From Candidatus Zhuqueibacterota bacterium (GTDB lineage: Bacteria > Zhuqueibacterota > Zhuqueibacteria > Thermofontimicrobiales > Thermofontimicrobiaceae), in assembly GCA_049322915.1 (NCBI GenBank), contig JBMOPW010000036.1:195719-230789 (forward strand): a stretch of 35,071 nucleotides of DNA, in the 5' to 3' direction. Position 1 is the stretch's first letter, and every line of letters starts with the position of its first letter. Made by a program: the position numbers and the translations under genes. Positions 9,977-34,948 of this stretch are shown piece by piece. The notes beneath the pieces are model-generated. The model was not told the DNA's origin. It searched no databases and saw nothing but the letters and a program-made list of their open reading frames with translations.

Positions 9977-10234
9977 AATCAAATTAACCCTACAACGTCA
10001 TTTAGCAAGTTTATGGCAATATAATGTATGTATTATCATTTACAAATACCATATCTTGAGCTAATAAAGCCATGTGACGTAGTAGGGTTAATTGAAAAGC
10101 AGCGGTCGCCGAGGGCGCAGAGAAATGACCAGATTCGTACAACATTCCACATTTCTTTTAGGGTAACTTGTCATGCCCGATTATCCCACAAATGCGGGAA
10201 ACCCTCCAAAAAATTAAGAAATGGAATACTAAGT

Positions 10235-22094: not shown

Positions 22095-22363
22095 TGATCT
22101 AATCCTTTAATTGGAAATGGTTTCTTACCATTAGCTGCCAGCTCCCAGTCTGCTATCAGGTCTTCCTTGTGAATTTCGATCCACGCCACAACTAACTTAT
22201 GCTTATTAGAAGGTATTGAACCTGAGAGTACTTCACCATCTGGAATTGAATATACTGCCACTTGTCCTTGATAATCCGCATGAATATGTGGTAAATGGTT
22301 TTTTTCTGCATCCTTGAAAAACATTCTTATCAATATACCATAAAACATAGAAATTGTAGGCAT
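22091..22363 (-). CDS. DUF4160 protein (putative toxin of the DUF4160/DUF2442 TA pair)
   Basis: MPTISMFYGILIRMFF...HLPHIHADY...LVVAWIEIHKEDL...W...IKGL. Confidence 0.9.
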   Translation of the reverse strand: MPTISMFYGILIRMFFKDAEKNHLPHIHADYQGQVAVYSIPDGEVLSGSIPSNKHKLVVAWIEIHKEDLIADWELAANGKKPFPIKGLDQ

Positions 22364-22444
22364 CTATACCTCACCAAAAATGACTAAATTTGCTTTTATA
22401 AATATACAATATCTGGATTAATAATACAATCTTTTCAGCTATAA

Positions 22445-22850
22445 CCCATAATCCCCGCAGTTAGAGTTATACGCCATTAGCGCCTGCGTGGAAATTATTA
22501 GTTGAAGCATAGAGAAACCAGTATTATATTTAATTGGCGTTAAAATATAATGATGGAGGTCTCCCTATGCTTCGTCATCATATCACTCATTTTTTAGACT
22601 ATTGCAAAAATTCAAACTTCTCCAATCGCTCCATCGAATCGCTGGAGTGCCGGTTGCTGGAATTCAATGCCTTCATCCAACAGCAGGCCGCTCCCGGCAT
22701 CGAGCACATCACCTACCACCATCTCATTCAATTCGTCGCCGATTTTGGCACACCTTCACCATCCGTCAAAAAAATGCGGGTGTGGAGCCTGCACCAATTC
22801 TTTCATTACCTGACCCTGCAACAACTCATCCCGCACAACGTCGCCGCGCT
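22445..22850 (+). mobile_element. Tyrosine-recombinase element copy 1 (left end plus truncated recombinase, ATG 22567), abutting the cassette G|TT
   Basis: ctataac|ccataatccccgcagttagagttatacgccattagcgcctg. ORF MLRHHITHFLDYCKNSNFSNRSIESL...L.EF..F...ITYHHLIQFV...SPSVKKMRVWSLHQFFHYL...NVA is an XerD/phage-integrase SAM-like N-terminus. Colinear and near-identical with 25510-25828. Confidence 0.75.
22502..22530 (+). promoter_or_regulatory. Putative sigma70 promoter of the recombinase gene (also present in copy 3)
   Basis: TTGAAG-17 nt-TATATT, followed by RBS ggagg and ATG. Confidence 0.45.
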
Positions 22851-23292
22851 ATTACAGTCCCTGTCAGTTTTGATGAACGCATCGCACGACTGAATCTTCT
22901 ACAGGCAGGGTGGATCAATTATTTCAAATTAGCCAATATGTACGGCAAATTACGAGATATTGATGTCTGGGTTCGCCGCCGTCTGCGTGGCTGCATCTGG
23001 TCCCGCACCTGCGGGAGAAGAAACCAAACCGTAAGATGAAGAATCTTATCCGTTTGGGAATTCAACCAGGCATTGCCTATTCCTGGAGCCGCACTCGAAT
23101 GGGACGCTGGGCAGTTGCATGCAGTCCAATCCTCAGCACGACAATTACAAACGAAAGACTGGAACGCAGGGGCTATATTTCTATGCTATCGTATTACCTT
23201 AAAATTACTCATGGTTAATGAACCGTCCCGAAGCGTCGGGATGGTGTGAGAGGTGCACTCCAGTGGGAAACTGCTGAAGCCACCTACTCGAT
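22851..23292 (+). mobile_element. Group IIC-attC intron 3' remnant (frameshifted maturase C-terminus, damaged DV, DVI)
   Basis: SFDERIARLN..QAGWINYFKLA...LRDIDVWVRRRLR.CIW / KNLIRLGI...AYSWSRTRMG.WAVA.SPIL.TTIT..RL..RGY.S. Then gaaccg...tggtgtgagagg...cacctactcgat, followed by tagcggc, the rest of an attC R'' on the bottom strand. Confidence 0.9.
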
Positions 23293-23298
23293 TAGCGG

Positions 23299-23487
23299 CT
23301 ATTTTGCTGGCTCTACACCAAGATCTTTGCATATCTTTCTCGCCAAGATGTCCTTGATCTCGGAATGCCGAGGAATCGCCGACCGTTTATTTTGCGCTGG
23401 ATTATGCCACCATGAATGCTTACTACCTTCTCGTAAAAGATCGCATCCCTGGCTTCGCAGATACTTGAGAAGTTCATTTCTCTTCAT
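23299..23487 (-). CDS. hicA: HicA-family toxin
   Basis: MKRNELLKYL...GC.LLREGSKHSWW.NP...SAIPRHSEI...LARKICKDLG. Confidence 0.9.
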   Translation of the reverse strand: MKRNELLKYLRSQGCDLLREGSKHSWWHNPAQNKRSAIPRHSEIKDILARKICKDLGVEPAK

Positions 23488-23696
23488 ATGGCGATTTTTT
23501 CTTCCTTGTAGCCACTACCGGCAGAGGTCAATGCGTCCTGGCGGTTGAATTCCAATGCCTCTCTTAGCGTAACCTCCAAGGTCTCTTTCAACTCCTCGTA
23601 GGTCTTTTCCTGGCAATTTACACCGGAAATTTCCTCGATCCATCCCACCCACCAGTCGTCTTCCTGTTTCATAACCGCTGTATACTCGTTTTGCAT
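23484..23696 (-). CDS. hicB: HicB-family antitoxin (upstream of the toxin)
   Basis: YTAV.KQEDDWWVGWIEEISGVNCQEKT.EEL.ETL...L.EAL; RBS ggagg. Confidence 0.9.
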   Translation of the reverse strand: MQNEYTAVMKQEDDWWVGWIEEISGVNCQEKTYEELKETLEVTLREALEFNRQDALTSAGSGYKEEKIAI

Positions 23697-23734
23697 ACTC
23701 TTTGCCTCCATAATGAATATTTTATGCACGATAA

Positions 23735-23778
23735 CCCATAAACCCCGCAGTTAGAATTATACGCCATTAGCGCCTGCG
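23735..23778 (+). mobile_element. Tyrosine-recombinase element copy 2 (left end only), abutting the G|TT of the hicBA cassette
   Basis: cgataac|ccataaaccccgcagttagaattatacgccattagcgcctgcg. Confidence 0.75.
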
Positions 23779-23885
23779 CTCTGTCTGGGGGGCCGTATCC
23801 AATACAGTGAGTATTGGGCACATTGTTAATCCACTGGTATACTTTTCAATTAATACAATGGTACACTTTTCACTTGAAATTTACA
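23779..23885. mobile_element. IS21-family terminal remnant
   Basis: Minus strand TGTAAATTTCAAGTGAAAAGTGTACCA-TTGTATTAATT-GAAAAGTATACCA: a TGT terminus with tandem subterminal repeats, typical of IS21 ends. Confidence 0.65.
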
Positions 23886-24056
23886 ATTGCCGCAAAAGCC
23901 ATTAAAAAATCGGTGATTAAAATTCTCATCCAATTCCTTGAAATTTATTTATGAAGGCTTTCTTAATGCCATCTTTAACTCCTTGAATGTTGCAAGGCAA
24001 TTGATTCTTATCTTTCGAGACGAATCTTTGGTCTTACCATCGAATTGGACTTATTA

Positions 24057-24320
24057 TTAAGCAATTTTCTGTTTAATAATATCGCTAACCAGTTTTTTGA
24101 CTGGTTTTTGCTGCTTCTTGGAATAGGATCGTAACGCAATAAAACTTTCTTCATCCAACTCAATCTGGAAATGACGTCTTTTAATATCTGCTTTGAATTC
24201 AACAGGCTCCAAATATTCCTCATAATCTGTTATACTATGTGTATCCCAGAATTCGCCAGCTTCTTCTTCTGAAGAAAATTCATCAGGTAACGGATCAATT
24301 TTTTTATTTGTGTTTGTCAT
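24057..24320 (-). CDS. BrnA/CopG-like antitoxin
   Basis: LPDEFSSEEEAGEFWDTHSITDY...ribbon-helix-helix-like C-terminus. Confidence 0.85.
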   Translation of the reverse strand: MTNTNKKIDPLPDEFSSEEEAGEFWDTHSITDYEEYLEPVEFKADIKRRHFQIELDEESFIALRSYSKKQQKPVKKLVSDIIKQKIA

Positions 24321-24589
24321 AATATTTCATTTCAGTTAATGTCATTTCACGTGCTGATATAGGCAAAGCAATATCATGTTTTTTTTTATAAAAAATACAA
24401 TCAAGTATCGCCCATTGATGATTTGTGCTTGAGCGGATAGATATCTTCTCCATGCACTCGTCCTTTGACTACTTTACGAACTAAAGGACTAGAGTAGAGA
24501 GCTTCTTCTGCCTCATAAATGGTCACATTATGCTTGATTTCTAGTTTTTCAACAAATTGCTCCTTCCAAATAATATCCGTTATTTTCAA
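24304..24589 (-). pseudogene. BrnT-like toxin with two frameshifts
   Basis: IIW...EKL..KHNVT..EAEEAL, then GRYLIVFFIKK in another frame, then ALPISAREMT..E.KYY in the third frame. Shifts lie near 24436 and in the A9 run at 24379-24387. Confidence 0.75.
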
Positions 24590-24646
24590 ATTTCTTGCTC
24601 CTTAAAAATAAAATGAATAAATTAAAAAACAAGCATTATCTTCTAT

Positions 24647-24774
24647 GCATAACGAAAAGTGTTAGCCGCCGGAGCCGCGTAAAATGAAACTGCTAAAACG
24701 ACATTACTTTCTACGGCTATTATTTACTGCTATCGCGACAGGAGGCGCAGGTCGGCTACACACTTGTGTTAACC
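24647..24774 (-). other. attC site of the addiction-module (killer/antidote) cassette
   Basis: Minus strand GGTTAAC acaag tgtgtagccgacc...ggcggctaacac ttttc GTTATGC. R'' is exactly complementary to GTTAACC at the cassette 5' end (25506-25512). Confidence 0.85.
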
Positions 24775-24804
24775 ATTTATTGTCATCCAAATTGTTAAGG
24801 TGTT

Positions 24805-25119
24805 TCAAGCCGAGTGCGAAGGGTGAACTTCTTTTATTTCTATAGCCAATTTGAGTCCCAAGTTATCTAATATTGTCGAAAGGCTTGACAAATTGGGATT
24901 TCCTTCATTAGATAGCATCCGATACATATTCTCTCTATTAAGAGATGTTTGTTGCGAAATGTTTTTAATTCCCCTTGCTGCCGCGACATCTCTCAACGCC
25001 ATGAGAAATATTTCTTGATTTCCATCTTGGAGTGCAGCGTTCAGATATTCAACCGCCTCCTTTGGATTTCTGAGATCTTTTATGAGATCATCTTTGTAAT
25101 TTTTAGTGAGTTTATTCAT
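24805..25119 (-). CDS. Addiction module antidote protein (HTH, HI1420-like)
   Basis: L..PKEAVEYLNAAL.DG...FLMALRDVAAARGI..ISQQT.LNRENMYRMLS.EGNP.LSSL..IL..LG; start re-assigned to ATG 25119. Confidence 0.9.
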   Translation of the reverse strand: MNKLTKNYKDDLIKDLRNPKEAVEYLNAALQDGNQEIFLMALRDVAAARGIKNISQQTSLNRENMYRMLSNEGNPNLSSLSTILDNLGLKLAIEIKEVHPSHSA

Positions 25120-25450
25120 TTTTTCTCCTGCAATAATCAGCCCAAAACAATTTGGCCAAGTCAATATCTTTTTTTTGGCTTTTTTTACTACCCGCACAGA
25201 GGAGTATAATAAGGGTAGTGCCATCCTGGCCGAAATAAATCCTGTATCCTGGACCAAAATCAACTCGAAGCTCTGATACACCCTCGCCAACTGGTTTACA
25301 GTCTCCCAAATTGCCCAGGATAATTCGGTTAAGTCGGACACGAATAACGGCGCGAGCTTTTATGTCTTTCAATGATTTTATCCAATCATCGAAAGGGCAC
25401 TTACCATCTTCGGTGATATATTCGAGCAATTCTTTATGTTTTGATTCCAT
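25112..25450 (-). CDS. Addiction module killer protein (RelE/HigB-like, HI1419-like)
   Basis: Y.TEDGKCPFDDW..SLKD.KARA.I.VRL.RI..GNLGDCKPVGEGVSELRVDFGPGYRIYF. Confidence 0.95.
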   Translation of the reverse strand: MESKHKELLEYITEDGKCPFDDWIKSLKDIKARAVIRVRLNRIILGNLGDCKPVGEGVSELRVDFGPGYRIYFGQDGTTLIILLCAGSKKSQKKDIDLAKLFWADYCRRKNE

Positions 25451-25455
25451 ACTCT

Positions 25456-25484
25456 AATGTAGCTTAAAAGCCACTAAAAGTCAA
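25456..25484 (-). promoter_or_regulatory. Cassette-internal promoter, probably leaderless
   Basis: TTGACT-17 nt-TACATT, 5 nt upstream of the toxin ATG, with no RBS. Confidence 0.6.
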
Positions 25485-25511
25485 CTGGATTTTCATGAAA
25501 TAGATGGTTAA

Positions 25512-26011
25512 CCCATAAACCCCGCAGTTAGAGTTATACGCCATTAGCGCCTGTGTGGAAATTGTTAGTTGAAGCATAGAGAAACCAGTATTATATTTAA
25601 TTGACGTTACAATATAATTATGGAGGTTTCCCTATGCTTCGTCATCATATCACTCATTTTTTTGAGTATTGCAAAAATTCAAACTTCTCCAATCGCTCCA
25701 TCGAATCGCTGGAGTGCCGGTTGCTGGAATTCAATGCCTTCATCTTACTGCAGGCCGCTCCCTGCATCGGGCACATCACCTACCACCATCTCATTCAATT
25801 CGTCGCCGATTTCAGCACACCTTCACCAAAGGTGGTGTGTCGATCTGTCTTTTCCCCGGGAGAAGTACGCCTTGTTTATGCCTTATCGAAATAGCGATTG
25901 ATTTTTCCAACTCAATCGGTTATATTGAATCATCAACTGCTGCTCTCTCTATGTTGATGCTGCTTTTTCACCTGCCTAATTGCGTATAACTCGATTCTTT
26001 ACTGCGGGGTT
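25512..26011 (+). mobile_element. Tyrosine-recombinase element copy 3: both ends present, internally deleted (500 bp), inserted at the attC crossover
   Basis: Left end (c)ccata-aaccccgcagttagagttatacgccattag; right end (reverse complement) aaccccgcagtaaagaatcgagttatacgcaattag. Recombinase N-terminus from ATG 25634 breaks at 25828. Removing the element restores ...gcggagc ttttc GTTAACC. Confidence 0.8.
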
Positions 26012-26063
26012 CGAAAAGCTCCGCTGCCGAGTTTATGAGGTCGGCTGAAGCGACATGTTCGCC
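26012..26063 (-). other. attC site of DUF4160/DUF2442 cassette 2, separated from its R' by the element
   Basis: GGCGAAC atgtc gcttcagccgac ctcataaa ctcggcagcggagc ttttc G|. Overlaps the gene end (ANMSLQPTS). R'' matches GTTCACC at 26638-26644 at 6/7 positions. Confidence 0.8.
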
Positions 26064-26344
26064 AGCGAACCTTGCTGCGAATTCATCCATTCAGGTAGAG
26101 GGGAGTTCGTTGCCACGGAATAAAGTGTTTCAGGTGCAATATCGATTTCATCCCCCCAGGTAAGCACTCCAAGTTCCTCATTAATTTTAAAATTTTTGAA
26201 AAATTCCATATCCTTGAATTTTTCGAAGATCCCACCTTCAAGTAAATATTTTGAAAAATCGACGACTCCAGAGGCACCGTCCTCAAAAGTGATTTCAATT
26301 TTATATTCGCCCTTATATTTTGCTGAGATTACATCCCTAAGCAT
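26033..26344 (-). CDS. DUF2442 protein (putative antitoxin)
   Basis: YKIEITFEDGASGVVDF...GIFEKFKD.EFF...VLTWGDEIDIAPETLY. Confidence 0.9.
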   Translation of the reverse strand: MLRDVISAKYKGEYKIEITFEDGASGVVDFSKYLLEGGIFEKFKDMEFFKNFKINEELGVLTWGDEIDIAPETLYSVATNSPLPEWMNSQQGSLANMSLQPTS

Positions 26345-26797: not shown

Positions 26798-29700
26798 TTA
26801 TTTCAGCAAAATAAATTTTTTCGTGTCAGCGAATTCAACTCTTTTTTGAGAAATATCTTTTACACGGATTCGATAAAAGTAAATTCCTGTGGAATACTGC
26901 TTTGCGTTCCATGAAACTTGATGTGTACCTGCATTATAGCTATCATTTATCACCCGTTCGATACATTGCCCTGCGCTGTTAAATACGTCTAAAACAACAT
27001 AGCATGTTTGGGGCAAATCAAATTTGATGTTTGTTTTTGGATTAAATGGATTGGGATAATTCTGCCATAAATTAAAATTCTTTGGGATTATCGTTTGATC
27101 TTTAGAAATTTGTGTGACTGGCGCTTTCCTGGAAAAATAGGAAATCAAACCACTCCCGCCAACGATCCAGCCAAATGTTCCTTTATCAGTATGAACTATT
27201 GAAATATTCCGAATTCCATCGTCCGTCATTGTTTCCAGTTCCCAGGAGTCCCCATTATCCTTACTGCTGTAGAGCGCATGATCGATTAATGCCCAAAAAG
27301 TATCCTGCTGGGCGTAAATATAGCGAATAAAGCCAGCTTCTGGAGCGCGGAGCAATTCCCAGGTTGTTCCAGAATCAAAAGTAATCGCCATTTTTTCATA
27401 AGTAGAGGCGGCAAGCCCAATGCCCGATCCATTTAAAGCGATCGCTGAAATATTTTTCAAAACAGGAACTTCTTTTATATTCCAGTTCACTCCTTTATCG
27501 CTTGTAAAAATAATTCTGGATTTATTCGAGCTAAACCAGATATTGTTCTCATCTACTTTACAAACGTTATGATGATATCCATTTTCTGCATCTTCCGCTA
27601 ATGGCGCGTTAGTTAACAAATTCCATGAAATCCCACCGTCGATTGTTTTAAATATCTGCCATTGTCCTTCTTTGGGATCGCCAAAAGCAAAGCCGGTTTG
27701 AGAATCAAGCATCGTGATATCATTAATAAAAAGGCGCTGCTGCTCCAGAACCTTTGTCCAGCTAACGCCGCTATTTTCAGTGATGTAAATCGCTGATATC
27801 GCCGCTGGACTATTCCATTCACCAGTGACAACTGCAATGAGCGCCGTGTCATTAGAGACCGCTTCAACGCAAAGTATATCCAGCGAATCAGGACCGTCCC
27901 ATACATTATTCCAGGCATTGCCTCCATCAATTGTAAGCAAAACAGCTCCATCGATCCCGCATGCCCAGGCTTTTTGCTCCGACACTGCGGTCACATCATA
28001 CAAAGGCTCAGTCCATCCTGATGATTGAATTTTCCATTTATCAGCGATCTTTGTGGCGTTTATCGTCACATCCTTGTCCCCGCCATTAGAAGTAATATGA
28101 AGCGCGCTGGAATATTTACCTGGATTTAAATTACTGCGATCAATCGTAACAGTGATCTCTGCGTCATTTGAACCGCTATTTGGAGAAATACTTGTAATCC
28201 AGCTTTCATTCAAAGTTACAGACCAGTTAAGAGAATTATAACCCGAATTAGCAATTTTAAATTTCTGTTCAGTTTCATGTAAACTAAAATCAAGGGTTTC
28301 AGCGCTCACTTTAAGAGAAGGCTCAAGAACAGTATTGCGATATTTTGCGATATAGCCATTTTCCCCAACAGTCCAACCGTAACGTCCCTGTTGATTTTCT
28401 ACAAACGAGAGAGAATAAAGCTGCGAATTTTTGGCAATTGTCTTCAATTCCCAATTATTCCCATTATCTTTCGTTTGATAAACGCTATTATCTACAATTA
28501 GCCAAAAAATATTTTCATGATAAACGATATGACGTTCAACGCCGTCCACAGGAAGTGTTACCTGATTCCATGTTCTTCCATTATCCAGAGTGCGTCTTAA
28601 TTGTCCATGGTCGCTAAAAAAACCAATGCCTTCATTATTGAAAGTCAGAACCTTAAAAAACTTCCCATATCCGGGATTAACCAACTCCCATGTATCGCCG
28701 CCATCAACTGTATGATGCAGATTATAGTTTGTGCCAGTAAACCAGCACTCGCTTTCATTCAGCCATATGACTCCATCCCGACTGCCCCATTCATCATTCG
28801 AAGAAGTATTGGGAGCGTTCAAAATTTGCATCCAACTCTGACCGCCATCGTTCGTTTTTAACATCGTCCAAACGCCATTTACTGCATTTCCAATAGCAAA
28901 TCCATTTTCTGAATTAAACATTGTTATATTTGTAATCCAGCCATTGGCTTGTTCGAACACTTTCGACCAACTGCTCCCTCCATTTTCAGTCTTGAAGATA
29001 TAGGCGATACTCGTTCCAGCGTTCCAATCGCCTGTCAAGCCTGCGACAAATGCTGTATCGGAATTACACGCTTCGATGATATCGATATCTAATAAATCAG
29101 CGCCCCAAACGTTTGTCCATGTAGCGCCGCCGTCAATCGTTCGCAATACAACATTCTCTCCGCCCGCTATCCAGACTGTTTGTTCATCTACTGCATCTAG
29201 CGAGTAAAGATTGTTCGATGTTCCTGAATACTGAGAAAGCCAAACCTCTGTTGAAGCGCTTACTCTTATTGTTCCTGAATTTGTGGAAGCGACTCTTAAA
29301 GATTGGTTTTGAACGTCTCCAATATTGATATTTTTGGGAGCGATTATTGTTTCACCTGCATGCTGCGGTTGAAAAACGACTGTCGCCAACACACCTGAAC
29401 CAGATGGACCATCATTTACATTTGACGAAGTAGCGCCAAATGATAATCGACCTGTCGGATTAATATTATCAATTGTTGGTTCAATTATGGAAACCGCTCT
29501 TCCAGTACTTCCGAGAAAAGGGCCAATTAAAACTGTATCCACATGTACAATATCGGTGTTATATTCCAAATCAAACTGAAAAGAACCAAGGTGTGAAGCG
29601 TCCTCAATGACAACATCAACAGAACAAGGTTCATTTATTGTTATTGTTGAATTATTCGGTTCAATGCTAATAGAAACTTCATCGCTAAAATGAGGTTTTA

Positions 29701-32455
29701 AAGCGCTTCGCACTGAAATCAGGCTGCTAAAATAATCGCCCTCAGAAAATTGTGATTTTGCCTGAACAAGCAGTGGATCGTTGGCTGTTAAAATTGATTC
29801 TGCAAGTTTAATCATATATTCTGGATTGAGCGACGCCACAAACTCGTCAGAAGTTAGGACGATACCTCCTGAATCCTCAAATGCATTTGTAAATCGGCTT
29901 GGCGCTTCAGTTTGAAAATCCATATCATCTGGATCGATAATAAGGCCAATCAATATGCTTGCAAAGACTGGCAATATGGGACCTTGATTGCGGGAACTGT
30001 GAATATAATCAATATATAAATCAGAACCTGCCTGATAATAATCGAGTCTGAATTCAATATCTTTTGTAAACTCGTTCAATGTAAAATTAAGAGTAAAATC
30101 CTGATATTTACCTGGTTCACTAAATTCGGCTGGAGTGAGAAACTGATGTGCTATATTTTGCCAATTAACTGAATTTTGTCCAACATATATTTGAGCAAAT
30201 ATCTCTGAACTTTCATTTTGACTAACTTTCATGCGAAACGTTACTGCATAGTCTCCGGGCGGTAAACTTATCGCATTTGAATTCGCTGCAAGGCAACAGG
30301 ATGCTTTGTTCATTGGAATAAAAAGGGTTTGCCCGTTATAAGCCAAATCATCCTGAATGATAAACGTTTCCGGGTCAGTGACTTGAGTAAAATTTATAAA
30401 TTCTTCGCCAGGTTTTCGTGATAAAATATCATTTACAATTGCCTCCACATTTTTCCCCCGAATTGTATAAGAAGGCCAAACGGTTGGCGCAGGCGCTCCA
30501 AAATAATCAAAGCCAAATCCTCGGTTGGAGCCGCCATAACCATAAATATTTCCAAGGTATCCAACGTCTTTTAAACGAGTATAATATTGATTTGCTATTT
30601 CAGACGTCATATCGCCTAATCGCCCATCAATTCGAACTGTTCGCAAACCTGTTTTTTGTAGATATCGAGAAGTATAATCCAGATAATTCTGAAGCTCAGA
30701 ATCATCCATTAGCTGAGGATAGGCATACCCTGCGCCCGAGAGACCTGTTAAAAAACAGGATGCTTCCTGAGGCTGTGAGTCTATATAATAATTCCAAATT
30801 ACAGGAGCAAGTTCAGCTAAAACTGGATTAATTGTCCAGCCAAATTTTTGATGATTAACATTTTCCCATCCAAAAAAATTGTAGAATCCTCTTTGCATTA
30901 AATAGTTCAATGCATCGCCATCTGTACAAAACAAAGTTGCCACAGGGCGATTGCCAAGCGTTGAAAGTATTTTTTCATTATTGAGCCCATTTTGATAACG
31001 TTTTATTTCTGGTCTCACTGCGGAAAAAACTGTTAAACTGGTTGCCCGAATATTTTCCCCCGGCCATGTAAACGCGGCGTTAAAGTTGCCATATTCCGAG
31101 AATAATGCCGTGGAACTCTCTTCCCTGAGAGCAAAGCCGCCTGTTACCGGAATTGGCGAAGGCGCCTCGCTTAAAAACGTTTTTAATAATTTTGCCTGTG
31201 GATTATTTTCAGGATCAAGATAAATAGCTGGCAATTTCAACGCAATTATATAATCGCGGCTTGCAATCTCAAGAGGCCAGTAATAAACGCTGTTTTCAAC
31301 AATTCTTGAAGTTGGAGGTCCCGGACTTAAAAAGCCAATCATCCGATGCTCCAATCGCTGCCAGAGAAAATCGTAAACCCATTGATAAATTTCGGTTTGA
31401 CTTTCAATTGAAGCGTCCCAGTTAAATTGTTGCACAAGTTCTCTTATATCATAAACAGATTCAAATTTCGGCATACCAGGCAAATCCAATTGTTGTGGTG
31501 CGAGGATCATCCTGTTTTCCAAACCTGCGATCATAGTGGCAATGTTCATTGTTTCCGGGACTTCCGGATCGTAAATCACCGCTCCATCAAATCTATTCGA
31601 ATATCTGCGCATCAAAAAATTAACTACGCTCAATCCATCCATTTCAAATGGAATAACTTCTATATGTTCGCCAATTTTTTCTTGCCAGAAGGCATGATGT
31701 CCATCAATTTCGCTCCAATCAAGATAAATTTTCGGTTGATTGCGGTTGATAATTCCCTGCATACCCACAATAGTAAGCTCCATCATAGCATCATGTGAGT
31801 CGCTTATTCGCCAATCATTAACCCTTATTTCAGGGTGGTCAATTGAAAATGCATCGTTTAATTGAAATGCAAAAACCTGATGCGTTTCCGGAAATTGTGG
31901 AAAATATTGCCCATCAATCCATACAGGTTCAGTCGTTGGTTTTGATTCAGGAATCGCTTCTCCAACAGGAACATAGCCCTGATGCCAATATTTATCAACC
32001 CGCAGTGCGGCGGACAATTCCCCATCTATTTTCACATTCATCCAAAGATTATCTTTTACCGACTTAATACCAAGCAATATTCCTTCGGTCCCGTAAGGCG
32101 TCATAAGCTGGATTTCAGCTTTCTTTTGAGAACCTCCTGACCATTGAAATGAACCGATTTCCTGATCAACCTCATTTTGAAACCATCCTCCACGCTGCAA
32201 GCTGTTCGTCTCGTCTAAGCCAAATATAAATTCCCCCAGCGAATGACCGATGGCGTCTATAAACGTAATTGAATGAAAAGCAACCGCAAGTTCTCTGCTT
32301 TCGCCTGTAGGCTTTACAGTTGCACTAAATTCAAAAACAATTTGTGTTTCGGGAATTCCGTTAATAGAATGCTTTTCTCCTGAGAGGATTATCTGAGTAG
32401 AAGTACACAAGAAAAGACAAAGTAAAAATAGCGATCTTTTTGTATTCATATTCAT
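26798..32455 (-). CDS. 1885-aa secreted protein: GxGYxYP putative glycoside hydrolase, cohesin-like domain, two YCF48/BNR beta-propellers, BACON, T9SS/FlgD-type CTD
   Basis: Signal peptide. QGIINR.QP.IY, GAVIYDP, TDGD, GWTINP.L.ELAP and SGAGYAYP are GxGYxYP-family motifs. LGSFQFDLEYN...GSGVLATVVF is cohesin. Many T.DGG.TW Asp-boxes. IANSGYNSLNW...WITSISP is BACON. QNYPNPFNPKT...STGIYFYR is the CTD. Confidence 0.9.
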   Translation of the reverse strand: MNMNTKRSLFLLCLFLCTSTQIILSGEKHSINGIPETQIVFEFSATVKPTGESRELAVAFHSITFIDAIGHSLGEFIFGLDETNSLQRGGWFQNEVDQEIGSFQWSGGSQKKAEIQLMTPYGTEGILLGIKSVKDNLWMNVKIDGELSAALRVDKYWHQGYVPVGEAIPESKPTTEPVWIDGQYFPQFPETHQVFAFQLNDAFSIDHPEIRVNDWRISDSHDAMMELTIVGMQGIINRNQPKIYLDWSEIDGHHAFWQEKIGEHIEVIPFEMDGLSVVNFLMRRYSNRFDGAVIYDPEVPETMNIATMIAGLENRMILAPQQLDLPGMPKFESVYDIRELVQQFNWDASIESQTEIYQWVYDFLWQRLEHRMIGFLSPGPPTSRIVENSVYYWPLEIASRDYIIALKLPAIYLDPENNPQAKLLKTFLSEAPSPIPVTGGFALREESSTALFSEYGNFNAAFTWPGENIRATSLTVFSAVRPEIKRYQNGLNNEKILSTLGNRPVATLFCTDGDALNYLMQRGFYNFFGWENVNHQKFGWTINPVLAELAPVIWNYYIDSQPQEASCFLTGLSGAGYAYPQLMDDSELQNYLDYTSRYLQKTGLRTVRIDGRLGDMTSEIANQYYTRLKDVGYLGNIYGYGGSNRGFGFDYFGAPAPTVWPSYTIRGKNVEAIVNDILSRKPGEEFINFTQVTDPETFIIQDDLAYNGQTLFIPMNKASCCLAANSNAISLPPGDYAVTFRMKVSQNESSEIFAQIYVGQNSVNWQNIAHQFLTPAEFSEPGKYQDFTLNFTLNEFTKDIEFRLDYYQAGSDLYIDYIHSSRNQGPILPVFASILIGLIIDPDDMDFQTEAPSRFTNAFEDSGGIVLTSDEFVASLNPEYMIKLAESILTANDPLLVQAKSQFSEGDYFSSLISVRSALKPHFSDEVSISIEPNNSTITINEPCSVDVVIEDASHLGSFQFDLEYNTDIVHVDTVLIGPFLGSTGRAVSIIEPTIDNINPTGRLSFGATSSNVNDGPSGSGVLATVVFQPQHAGETIIAPKNINIGDVQNQSLRVASTNSGTIRVSASTEVWLSQYSGTSNNLYSLDAVDEQTVWIAGGENVVLRTIDGGATWTNVWGADLLDIDIIEACNSDTAFVAGLTGDWNAGTSIAYIFKTENGGSSWSKVFEQANGWITNITMFNSENGFAIGNAVNGVWTMLKTNDGGQSWMQILNAPNTSSNDEWGSRDGVIWLNESECWFTGTNYNLHHTVDGGDTWELVNPGYGKFFKVLTFNNEGIGFFSDHGQLRRTLDNGRTWNQVTLPVDGVERHIVYHENIFWLIVDNSVYQTKDNGNNWELKTIAKNSQLYSLSFVENQQGRYGWTVGENGYIAKYRNTVLEPSLKVSAETLDFSLHETEQKFKIANSGYNSLNWSVTLNESWITSISPNSGSNDAEITVTIDRSNLNPGKYSSALHITSNGGDKDVTINATKIADKWKIQSSGWTEPLYDVTAVSEQKAWACGIDGAVLLTIDGGNAWNNVWDGPDSLDILCVEAVSNDTALIAVVTGEWNSPAAISAIYITENSGVSWTKVLEQQRLFINDITMLDSQTGFAFGDPKEGQWQIFKTIDGGISWNLLTNAPLAEDAENGYHHNVCKVDENNIWFSSNKSRIIFTSDKGVNWNIKEVPVLKNISAIALNGSGIGLAASTYEKMAITFDSGTTWELLRAPEAGFIRYIYAQQDTFWALIDHALYSSKDNGDSWELETMTDDGIRNISIVHTDKGTFGWIVGGSGLISYFSRKAPVTQISKDQTIIPKNFNLWQNYPNPFNPKTNIKFDLPQTCYVVLDVFNSAGQCIERVINDSYNAGTHQVSWNAKQYSTGIYFYRIRVKDISQKRVEFADTKKFILLK

Positions 32456-33281: not shown

Positions 33282-33407
33282 GGGCAACGTGAAAATCAGC
33301 CGCCAAACCGCTTGCAAAAAAACTCATATAATGCACATACTTTCAAAATTCCCACCAAAATAGAATTGAAGCACGGCGGTTTGGTCGGCTACATTTTTTT
33401 GTTATGC
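33282..33407 (-). other. attC site of the NTF2-like cassette
   Basis: GCATAAC...tgtagccgaccaaaccgc...gcggtttggcggctga ttttcac GTTGCCC. Confidence 0.85.
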
Positions 33408-33979: not shown

Positions 33980-34828
33980 GTCGGGTAGCCAAGAGCTGTT
34001 ACCAGCTCTCAGCCCCCTAAGAACCGTACGTGACAGTTTCCCGTCATACGGCTCAAGCCTCTGAAAAGTATCCCTTGTGGGGATACCCACGAATTAATAA
34101 TAATTTGTTTCACGTTACTTTCTGATATTCAGAATAGCCATAAGGTATGTAGAGTGCACCATTCGCCAAACGGCGAACGTTATTTGCTTTTTCTACTTTC
34201 ATCTGATTATACCAGTATTCACGAGACCAGAGACCTGCTGAACGTCTGCCTCTTTGCAGAGTCCCGATTCATCGGGATATCCCGACCGTTACAGCCGGAC
34301 ATTCGCTTCTTTCAGCATCCTATTCCAATCCACCATCAGCTTGCCTTACGGTTAGCCTGCCCATCATAACAGGGCGATGGAATTGGGTTTCCACGTTCCG
34401 TACAATTGACCACAATGAGCAACTTAGGTGGATTCTCTACGCCGGCGATACGACAGTTCCGTATAGGTAGTTAGAAGACCTATAACCTGATCGCCTGTGT
34501 AAACACAAGGAAACACAGCTTAGACCTGACCCGCAGTTATTCTTGCTGGAATAATCTCCGTAGGTCAGATGCACGCATGACGACGCTTACGAACCTTTGA
34601 TTATTCTCACCATATTACTCAGACCTTAGCCCTTAACCAGAGGAGATTTCCGGATGGGTTTCCATCTCACGACTTCCACCCGTTTCGGTACATTGTCCGG
34701 TGAGCTTCACACCCCGTCACCTGCGCAACGGCAGCATGTCACCGTAAGGTACTGATAGGAACATATCAGGTTTGTCCAAAGAACATAATCCTTTAACAAA
34801 CATTCAATTATACAGCTTCGTGTCGCAC
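33980..34828 (-). mobile_element. ORF-less group IIB (CL1-like) intron, 849 nt, inserted in an attC R' core
   Basis: 5' end GTGCGACACGAAG; intact DV GAGCCGTATGACGGGAAACTGTCACGTACGGTTC; DVI ending CTACCCGAC; no RT ORF; flanks GTTATA|CCCG. Confidence 0.92.
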
Positions 34829-34948
34829 TATAACGTGAAAATCAGCCGCCAAACCGCTTGCAAAAAAACTCATATAATGCACATACTTTCAAAATTCCCA
34901 CCAAAATAGAATTGAAGCACGGCGGTTTGGTCGGCTACATTTTTTTGT
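34829..34948 (-). other. attC site, identical over 117 bp to 33286-33402, interrupted at both ends by introns
   Basis: 34832-34948 = 33286-33402. R' reads GTTATA| then the IIB intron. The bottom strand reads TTGT| then the IIC intron. Confidence 0.85.

Follow-up and report, generated by a model that had tools for sequence, protein, structure and literature searches.

What sequence ends, three times over, exactly at the recombination sites of integron gene cassettes? The question is raised by a window of 35,071 nucleotides (nt) of Candidatus Zhuqueibacterota bacterium, that is, the whole stretch of DNA analysed here, which forms the last 35 kb of contig C36 (JBMOPW010000036.1) in a source genome of 6.25 Mb and 45 contigs (G000). 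Small minus-strand cassettes fill the region from 21.8 to 26.7 kb of the window, and at three places the same sequence lies directly against the R′ core of a cassette attachment site, attC. The three repeats are probably, with a likelihood of about 85%, decayed copies of a mobile element of ~3.1 kb that encodes three tyrosine recombinases, resembles the RIT ('recombinases in trio') elements and targets attC.

The shared sequence is a 48-nt repeat at 22441–22488, 23731–23778 (96%) and 25508–25555 (94%), and these are its three occurrences in the window. Directly before it stand ctATAAC, cgATAAC and ggTTAAC in copies 1, 2 and 3, respectively, and the shared end, 45–48 nt in length, meets AAC at 22445/22446, 23735/23736 and 25512/25513. 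When read on the cassette strand, these boundaries are cores of the form G↓TTAT.. and G↓TTAA.. (the arrow marks the junction), situated 20–80 nt upstream of a cassette open reading frame (ORF). Copies 1 and 3 remain alike over 300 nt (22442–22741 versus 25509–25808, 95%). The orientation is the same in all three copies, with the recombinase N-terminus on the plus strand and the cassettes on the minus strand. The features concerned are as follows.

22439–22445, minus strand: R′ core GTTATAG (cassette strand), the 5′ boundary of a DUF4160/DUF2442 cassette and the target half-site to the left of copy 1.
22446–22850, plus strand: putative element copy 1, truncated, with spacer CCATA, box 1 AATCCCCGCAGT, box 2 and RecA codons 1–95.
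23729–23735, minus strand: R′ core GTTATCG (cassette strand), the 5′ boundary of the HicB/HicA cassette and the target half-site to the left of copy 2.
23736–23780, plus strand: putative element copy 2, of which the 45-nt left end alone survives.
24647–24774, minus strand: intact attC of the Gp49/antidote cassette, reading GCATAAC ... GTTAACC on the plus strand.
25506–25512, minus strand: R′ core GTTAACC (cassette strand), the target half-site to the left of copy 3.
25513–26011, plus strand: putative element copy 3, a 499-nt miniature with both ends.
26012–26063, minus strand: attC body of a DUF2442/DUF4160 cassette without its R′ box, CGAAAAGCTCCGC..GTTCGCC.

The RecA ORF of copy 1 starts at 22567 and encodes a Phage_int_SAM_1 domain (Pfam); the copy aligns to positions 301–707 of locus L033, and its likeness to the full-length relative ends at copy-1 position 404. 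Copy 3 consists of the left 315 nt (RecA codons ~1–65) and the right ~150 nt of the full element, with an internal deletion between them. Its left box 1 lies at 25518–25528, its right box 2 at 25978–25990 and its right box 1 at 26001–26011. The right end, which reads ...CTAATTGCGTATAACTCGATTCTTTACTGCGGGGTT at 26011, repeats the left end imperfectly in inverted orientation: box 1 (AACCCCGCAGT) agrees perfectly, and the subterminal box, AGTTATACGC(C/A)ATTAG, differs in spacing. The interval 26012–26063 that follows comprises the C of AAC, the spacer GAAAA, the L′ region, the loop, the L″ region and the closing GTTCGCC. Excision of 25513–26011 together with one C gives GGTTAAC↓GAAAAG, the same TAAC–GAAAAG join as in the attC at 24647–24774, which adopts the fold of an attC bottom strand, with TAAC–GTTA pairing and a bulge in the L stem, and is the in-window reference for the uninterrupted join. 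Elsewhere in the genome, contig C29 has a fourth left end, preceded by GTCTAAC, C14 has a right end on its own, and two recombinase fragments lie on C16 and C3. An initial annotation of this locus had recorded one end abutting the AAC of three cassette cores, a fixed orientation opposite to the cassettes, an imperfect inverted repeat at 26011 followed directly by an attC body lacking R′, the rebuilding of an attC upon excision with one ambiguous base, and the defective state of all three copies; each of these observations was borne out.

Chance is excluded as the origin of the repeat by its length and identity. The three copies might instead derive from segmental duplication or misassembly, against which the initial annotation had cautioned: repeats break assemblies, many related loci lie at contig ends, and the Logan contigs of run X1 contain an odd joint, 23295->25509. 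However, the flanks are unrelated cassettes, which excludes a segmental duplication, and the copies are cut at different points by different elements. Contigs of X1, which is perhaps the source sample and thus not independent, span 22300–22482, 23234–23816, 23859–25549 and 25955–26200, and more than 100 unrelated contigs, together with a closed genome, obey the same junction rule, so that this explanation retains hardly any probability. In the X1 joint, the 3′ end of an intron fragment described below is connected to TAAC plus the left end of the element (23295/25509); a second, opposite-strand joint occurs at 23242/23768. Both joints are absent from the G000 assembly, and they may represent an artefact of the assembly graph or another strain.

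The N-terminal RecA fragment matches 8 of 41 genomes of the clade, G000 counted, and 51 loci in species-representative genomes; a scan of metagenomes with the right-end pattern gave at least 116 stretches. By record labels, the element occurs in about ten phylum-level groups, a range that is provisional because the binning of short contigs into metagenome-assembled genomes (MAGs) is uncertain. On contigs that are long enough, three tyrosine-recombinase genes lie in tandem, RecA (289–294 aa) coming first and RecB (300–304 aa) and RecC (324–328 aa) following; they share one strand and overlap by 1–10 nt in full-length relatives. The catalytic pattern R..HxxR..H..Y, read directly in the translations, is kept in all three proteins, examples being LRT/HLFRH/GH/YAH, LRV/HVLRH/GH/YIH and LRV/HTLRH/GH/YIH. 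Public databases label the trio proteins merely as 'tyrosine-type recombinase/integrase' or XerC/XerD, and a RecC of the same 90% cluster is listed for Desulfobacula toluolica DSM 7467. Full-length relatives contain no genes besides the trio and, in particular, no Tfp/TnpC-like fourth gene. The full-length copy whose recovery the initial annotation had proposed is represented among the relatives.

Among 28 two-ended pairs listed, one is false, combining the left end of window copy 2 with the right end of copy 3; another, L143, is a deletion form of 1853 bp, and the remaining 26 span 3056–3232 bp. The 27 genuine pairs have perfect 11-bp terminal inverted repeats (TIRs; AACCCCGCRGT) and a subterminal box. 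On the plus strand, the left end reads C[C/A]NNA + AACCCCGCRGT + TAG.. and the right end ..AATTGCGC[C/A]TAAC + T + 8–9 nt + ACYGCGGGGTT. The subterminal box AATTGCGC[C/A]TAAC, the core of which is the target motif, is present at all 27 right ends listed. Deletion derivatives that retain both ends measure 314 bp (L102), 499 bp (window copy 3), 1.7 kb (L056) and 1.85 kb (L143).

The layout in the window mimics that of intI, attI and a cassette, since the recombinase start faces away, a conserved site abuts G↓TT and the cassette differs each time. Accordingly, the repeat could be attI and the recombinase an unusual integron integrase, the window then holding three decayed integron platforms; it also fits this explanation that no IntI over the TIGR02249 cutoff was found in G000, a genome estimated to be 96% complete (best score, 79 bits). 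However, against a cutoff of 265 bits, four RecA proteins score 40–58 bits and two RecB proteins 62–85 bits, and the RecA match is split into two stretches around the IntI-specific insert, whereas genuine IntI of relatives score 311–486 bits. In a maximum-likelihood tree, RecA, RecB, RecC and IntI (six genuine IntI of related genomes; support 100/100) fall into four distinct clades, all supported at 100%. Six genomes (G002, G015, G017, G018, G019 and G113) carry both a genuine IntI and the element, and the element also has another end, inverted, that lies against an attC body. These comparisons show that the trio recombinases are not IntI, in line with the initial annotation, and the attI explanation is extremely improbable. 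An IntI over the cutoff was found in 5 of the 8 relatives that carry the element and in 9 of the other 33 (14 of 41 in all), a comparison that is descriptive, the genomes being kin and incomplete.

Flanks were tabulated as the initial annotation had suggested. After 39 right ends had been sorted out by hand from 96 rows of the left-junction pattern, 57 distinct true left ends remained. In 48 of these, TAAC precedes the 5-nt spacer, in one case with a one-base shift; the other nine comprise five with other NAAC and four that are non-AAC (L026, L018, L071 and L077). The base preceding TAAC is C in 24 and A in 21, and farther upstream there is almost no information. The flanks of 121 distinct right junctions begin with C in 120 cases (CG 100, CA 19, CC 1) and with TA in one. 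Right flanks were examined for a single hairpin that, with TAAC placed in front, is closed by AAC..GTT and has at least 16 outer-stem pairs; this criterion is home-made and not a curated attC model, and the outer-stem count was used because the lowest energy favoured over-long structures. It is satisfied by 82 of 113 right flanks versus 39 of 339 shuffles (53 of 71 versus 44 of 355 in an earlier subset), and by 32 of 192 other TAACR sites, a control contaminated by real attCs of the same arrays. The attC-like sites are 45–129 nt long, with a median of 83.

Because 31 of the 113 right flanks miss the attC rule and a few left flanks are non-AAC, it could be supposed that the target is any TAAC↓G beside a hairpin and not attC as such, or that TAAC is borne by the element. 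Several failing flanks start with an L′-like motif and may be long or damaged sites. A moderately conserved L′-like block lies at a fixed distance (flank positions 9–16), the closing boxes are mostly GTTAT (27) and GTTAG (21) and mirror the left flanks ATAAC (21) and CTAAC (24), and the insertions in the closed genome G113 lie within an IntI-linked array. Moreover, TAAC stays with the cassette or the attC in element-free contigs. Among Logan contigs of other runs from different studies that were aligned to the window (uncovered parts in X2, X4 and X7 carry no meaning), those of X4 and X7 contain the Gp49/antidote cassette (24646–25512) at 90–99% likeness and, beyond 25512, continue into another attC body (GCGGAGTATAACCGG...). 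In X2, the match of one contig begins at 26012, after ...GGTCTCTAA; in X7, that of another begins at 26016, after ...GGGCTAACGGC. The two parts into which copy 3 divides its attC therefore both occur element-free as TAAC↓G sites, and the element is bounded exactly there. Since each half is found uninterrupted with its own TAAC↓G in other metagenomes, TAAC is part of the target and not of the element. A target other than attC as such is thus very improbable.

The flank order attC-body↓...↓TAAC recurs in more than 100 independent junctions, which agrees with the specialisation on attC crossover sites that the initial annotation had proposed. There is no target duplication beyond one ambiguous base, a single C being shared (AA↓C or AAC↓). 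The genes of the element run antisense to the cassettes, with the attC body at its right end and the TTRRRY half and next cassette at its left. The 5-nt spacer is constant within a genome (CCAT at 4 of 4 left ends in G000, CCCC at 5 of 5 in G113). Insertion is very likely to be site- and orientation-specific at the R′ box of attC, on the bottom strand between TAA(C) and (C)G. The phosphodiester that integron integrases exchange, G↓TT, is at most one base away from this point.

Such proximity to the IntI crossover, the position of the element in integron arrays and the GTTAG/CTAAC motifs of its ends would also be compatible with a passive element, inserted like a cassette by a host IntI through an attC- or attI-like site formed by the joined ends, the trio being otherwise employed. 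In established integron chemistry, IntI-type cassette insertion leaves GTT at both junctions. On the cassette strand, however, the attC-body junction of the element reads ..CG↓AACCCC, that is, G↓AAC and not G↓TT, so that the GTT required by IntI exchange is not regenerated and the element's own enzymes are the likely agents. In addition, the full-length element is always accompanied by three intact recombinases with their catalytic residues kept, and remnants occur where IntI was not found, in G000 (96% complete), G005 (77%) and G007 (91%), none of which proves absence. A passive element is consequently very unlikely.

Evidence for mobility comes from G113, a closed 5.2-Mb genome of the genus of one metagenomic host, in which the element is matched at seven places. 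Two copies agree at every one of 3084 nt; their three ORFs are all open, and their flanks are unrelated. Their left flanks are TTAAC and ATAAC, and their right flanks are two different hairpin sites of ~40 nt closed by GTTTGAA. They are located 5.4 and 15.9 kb from intI (TIGR02249, 366 bits), on the same strand as intI; the cassette ORF beside copy A runs the opposite way, and more attC-like sites surround both copies. Three further left ends, those of a near-complete third copy and of two fragments, follow CTAAC, TTAAC and ATAAC, so that all five left ends lie at NTAAC. Identical copies that sit in different attCs of a single array and end precisely at the inverted repeats are the trace that a recent transposition leaves.

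G113 contains two further repeated sequences. A highly structured repeat of ~143 nt (CTGGAAC...GTT) occurs in the sequence C1 at 3037652–3037794, 3049322–3049464, 3060167–3060309 and 3061962–3062104 (L262, L263), in all four cases in the IntI-linked array, where it immediately follows a short attC-like site at its GTTCCAG end, and may be another small element that uses attC ends. A 297-aa frame whose N-terminal part matches IntI partially recurs ten times in C1, with an identical score of 81.4 bits for nine occurrences and 77.8 bits for the tenth, for example at 2368016, 2378979, 2388548, 2391441, 2404223, 2436724, 3077759, 3617948 and 5056604; six of the ten cluster within 80 kb of the other intI of G113 (2358238–2359182). 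This frame may belong to a different multi-copy recombinase element in integron arrays.

How the element moves can be outlined tentatively, the details being rather less likely to be right than wrong. It would move via a circle in which the joined ends form a classical core site, ACYGCGGGGTT, a 6-bp spacer (C+CCNNA) and AACCCCGCRGT; the junction predicted for the G113 subfamily is ACYGCGGGGTT-CCCCCA-AACCCCGCGGT. This core site would recombine with attC through the element's own recombinases. Because the core of the subterminal box, [C/A]TAAC, is the same as the target motif, one protein of the trio may read box and target alike. The position AA↓C of the attC bottom strand is where IntI cleaves. 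Exchange on this strand would join the boundary between arm and spacer of the core site to AA↓C of attC. An exchange of one strand followed by replication would fit the constant spacer, which argues against a carry-over of flanks in the style of Tn554 or SE; the flanking 'coupling' sequence would not be carried. Since insertion parts L′ from R′, it would disable the attC for IntI and fuse two cassettes and the element into a larger unit.

Several points weigh against an attC-targeting mobile element of this kind, in addition to the four left flanks without AAC and the right flanks that fail the home-made criterion. In G000, seven places match the element, all of them incomplete, and no intact copy was found. 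The attC body to the right of copy 3 folds weakly on its own (z = −1.6). The element-free halves of its attC were seen separately, on contigs that are 90–99% alike, and the same two cassettes were not seen joined; an empty site was not found when 20 relatives were searched with the left or the right flank of copy 3. The loci are for the most part short contigs from metagenomes or MAGs. A circular junction or tandem form, searched as GCGGGGTT-N3-9-AACCCCGC, is present in none of the loci L001–L263, and the 119 matches to the junction pattern in a scan of viral contigs include none with extended arms and are unrelated hairpins. The roles of the recombinases, the strand exchanged and the folded, single-stranded target are features that we infer.

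RIT elements are among the known systems that the element resembles most closely. They have adjacent, overlapping ritA, ritB and ritC genes with inverted repeats, the archetype being that of Cupriavidus metallidurans CH34 (PMC3414803; PMC10214605). The element shares with them three overlapping tyrosine-recombinase genes on one strand, catalytic motifs, TIRs, a size of ~3 kb, the lack of cargo and a multicopy state (PMC3414803; PMC10214605). In contrast, its TIR is 11 bp long and the canonical RIT TIR 34 bp (PMC10214605), and its RecA of ~290 aa has one SAM-like domain, whereas canonical RitA is a protein of ~400 aa with two core-binding (CB) domains (PMC8138268). It also has a defined target, the R′ box of attC, whereas mobility and target specificity of RIT elements are entered as untested (Table 1 in PMC10214605).

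In BLASTP comparisons with canonical Rit proteins (3 × 3), RecB and RecC match best to RitC and RecA matches weakly to RitA, without collinear orthology. RecA consists of one Phage_int_SAM_1 and a catalytic domain, and the canonical RitA proteins compared have 405 and 412 aa. The tree pairs RecC with RitB (92/84) and RecB with RitC (89/84), both under the support threshold, and gives RecA no firm partner. RitC has an extra conserved C-terminal helix; RecC extends ~45 residues beyond the catalytic Tyr. When plasmids were searched with RecC by tblastn, the single best match was an XerD (34%), and the best trio-borne matches were the third genes of canonical trios (29% identity), on an Aromatoleum and a Sphingobium plasmid. 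Given the single CB domain of RecA, the lack of collinear orthology and the sub-threshold pairings, the element is best classed as RIT-like and not as a member of the RitA/B/C families. The initial annotation had suggested a RIT- or BIM-like element; the trio between inverted repeats agrees with the former, and a BIM-type pair was not what was found.

The other attC parasites differ in their enzymes and in their position within attC. The IS1111-attC elements move by an IS110/IS1111-family transposase, whereas the present element lies at the 3′ R′ crossover and encodes tyrosine recombinases alone. IS1111-attC elements (ISPa21, ISPst6) are attC-specific and orientation-specific and insert antisense to the cassettes near the attC 5′ end (PMC3001079), so that attC and orientation specificity and antisense insertion are common to both. 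Group IIC-attC introns likewise insert into the attC bottom strand, near the 5′ end of attC and antisense to the cassettes (PMC3001079), and an intron fragment lies beside copy 1 in the same orientation. Those introns are, however, retroelements with a ribozyme and a reverse transcriptase at another position of attC; no ribozyme domains or reverse transcriptase/maturase were found inside the element, the GIIM fragment at 22858–23295 being a separate neighbour. Recombination of attI with attC by IntI also involves a tyrosine recombinase at or within one base of the same R′ phosphodiester, and the left junction of the element resembles an attI–cassette junction, but the element differs in its missing IntI-specific domain, separate clade, three enzymes, two inverted ends and unregenerated GTT. 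Tn554, SE and GInt elements, like this one, have several tyrosine recombinases, are site-specific and make no target duplication; they bring a 6-bp copy of their former flank to the new location (PMC10214605), whereas the spacer here is constant relative to the flank (CCAT in G000, CCCC in G113) and a Tfp/TnpC-like gene is lacking. Full-text searches, outside of which lie subscription journals and bioRxiv supplements, turned up no description of a recombinase trio or RIT element that targets attC and nothing linking Desulfobacula toluolica to integrons; none of the papers listed for insertion into attC concerns such an element, to judge by their titles and the openings of their abstracts, and among the matches listed for attC together with RitA there were irrelevant papers alone. 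The attC-targeting recombinase trio is thus apparently an undescribed kind of integron parasite.

The copies in the window have been damaged by, or lie beside, other mobile sequences, of which two concern the element directly.

22858–23295, plus strand: 3′ fragment of a group II intron with a maturase GIIM domain and the 3′ end ...CCACCTACTCGAT.
23768–23885, no strand assigned: terminal fragment of ~118 nt of an IS21-family insertion sequence (IS), which cuts copy 2.

The group II identity of the first fragment is based on the Pfam match to GIIM alone (2.4e-10); an Rfam scan of 22400–26100 (E<=1) found no group II RNA domain at this place, and the same 3′ end is present on contig C29. The intron fragment and copy 1 appear to have been fused by a deletion, and both seemingly once lay in one attC, because TAGCGGC after the intron 3′ end fits a remnant of a GT↓TAGCG box; it looks like what is left of the R″ side of the attC of the HicAB cassette. 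An intact IS21-family IS with IstA/IstB-like ORFs is located on C29 (61704–63799), and further solo ends occur on C12 and C14.

The cassettes of the region (Pfam) comprise DUF4160/DUF2442 twice, HicB/HicA, a CopG-type pair and a Gp49/antidote pair. In G000, attC cassette arrays occur on at least C36 and C29 with no IntI over the cutoff, and they look like attC arrays without an integrase, or else intI is unassembled. A second group II intron lies on the minus strand at 33980–34770 (Rfam D1–D4, 83 bits; D5–D6, 69 bits); its span of ~790 nt leaves no room for an ORF, and it is oriented with the neighbouring genes, unlike IIC-attC introns. It is flanked by two 100% identical 117-nt repeats (33286–33402 and 34832–34948), the ends of which resemble attC at 24750–24786. 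Between the cassette region and further attC-like repeats near the contig end, the minus strand encodes a secreted protein of 1885 aa (26798–32455) with GxGYxYP glycoside-hydrolase-like, BNR/Sortilin-repeat, BACON, cohesin and Por secretion tail domains. A 48-nt inverted repeat, 71% complementary and with a 16-nt loop, is present at 9982–10093.

It is conceivable, though unlikely, that the trio constitutes a second, IntI-independent system that reads the attC bottom strand in its folded form and performs a single-strand exchange at the IntI phosphodiester or beside it. In that case it could, besides parasitising integrons, excise, fuse or move cassettes in integrase-free arrays such as those of G000, in which no IntI was found, and it would throw light on how attC recombination arose from Xer-like enzymes. 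For the element itself, the consequences are nearer at hand. The paper PMC3001079 names IS1111-attC elements and group IIC-attC introns as known attC parasites, to which the trio would add a third enzyme class. Because attC sites are hubs of cassette exchange, a parasite of the crossover point would inactivate the attC and weld neighbouring cassettes, and it would probably travel along when IntI moves the welded unit. Elements with a recombinase trio, whose mobility and specificity are entered as untested in PMC10214605, would gain a first defined target, and the intact, identical copies in a closed genome would offer a tractable system in which to ask why three recombinases are needed.

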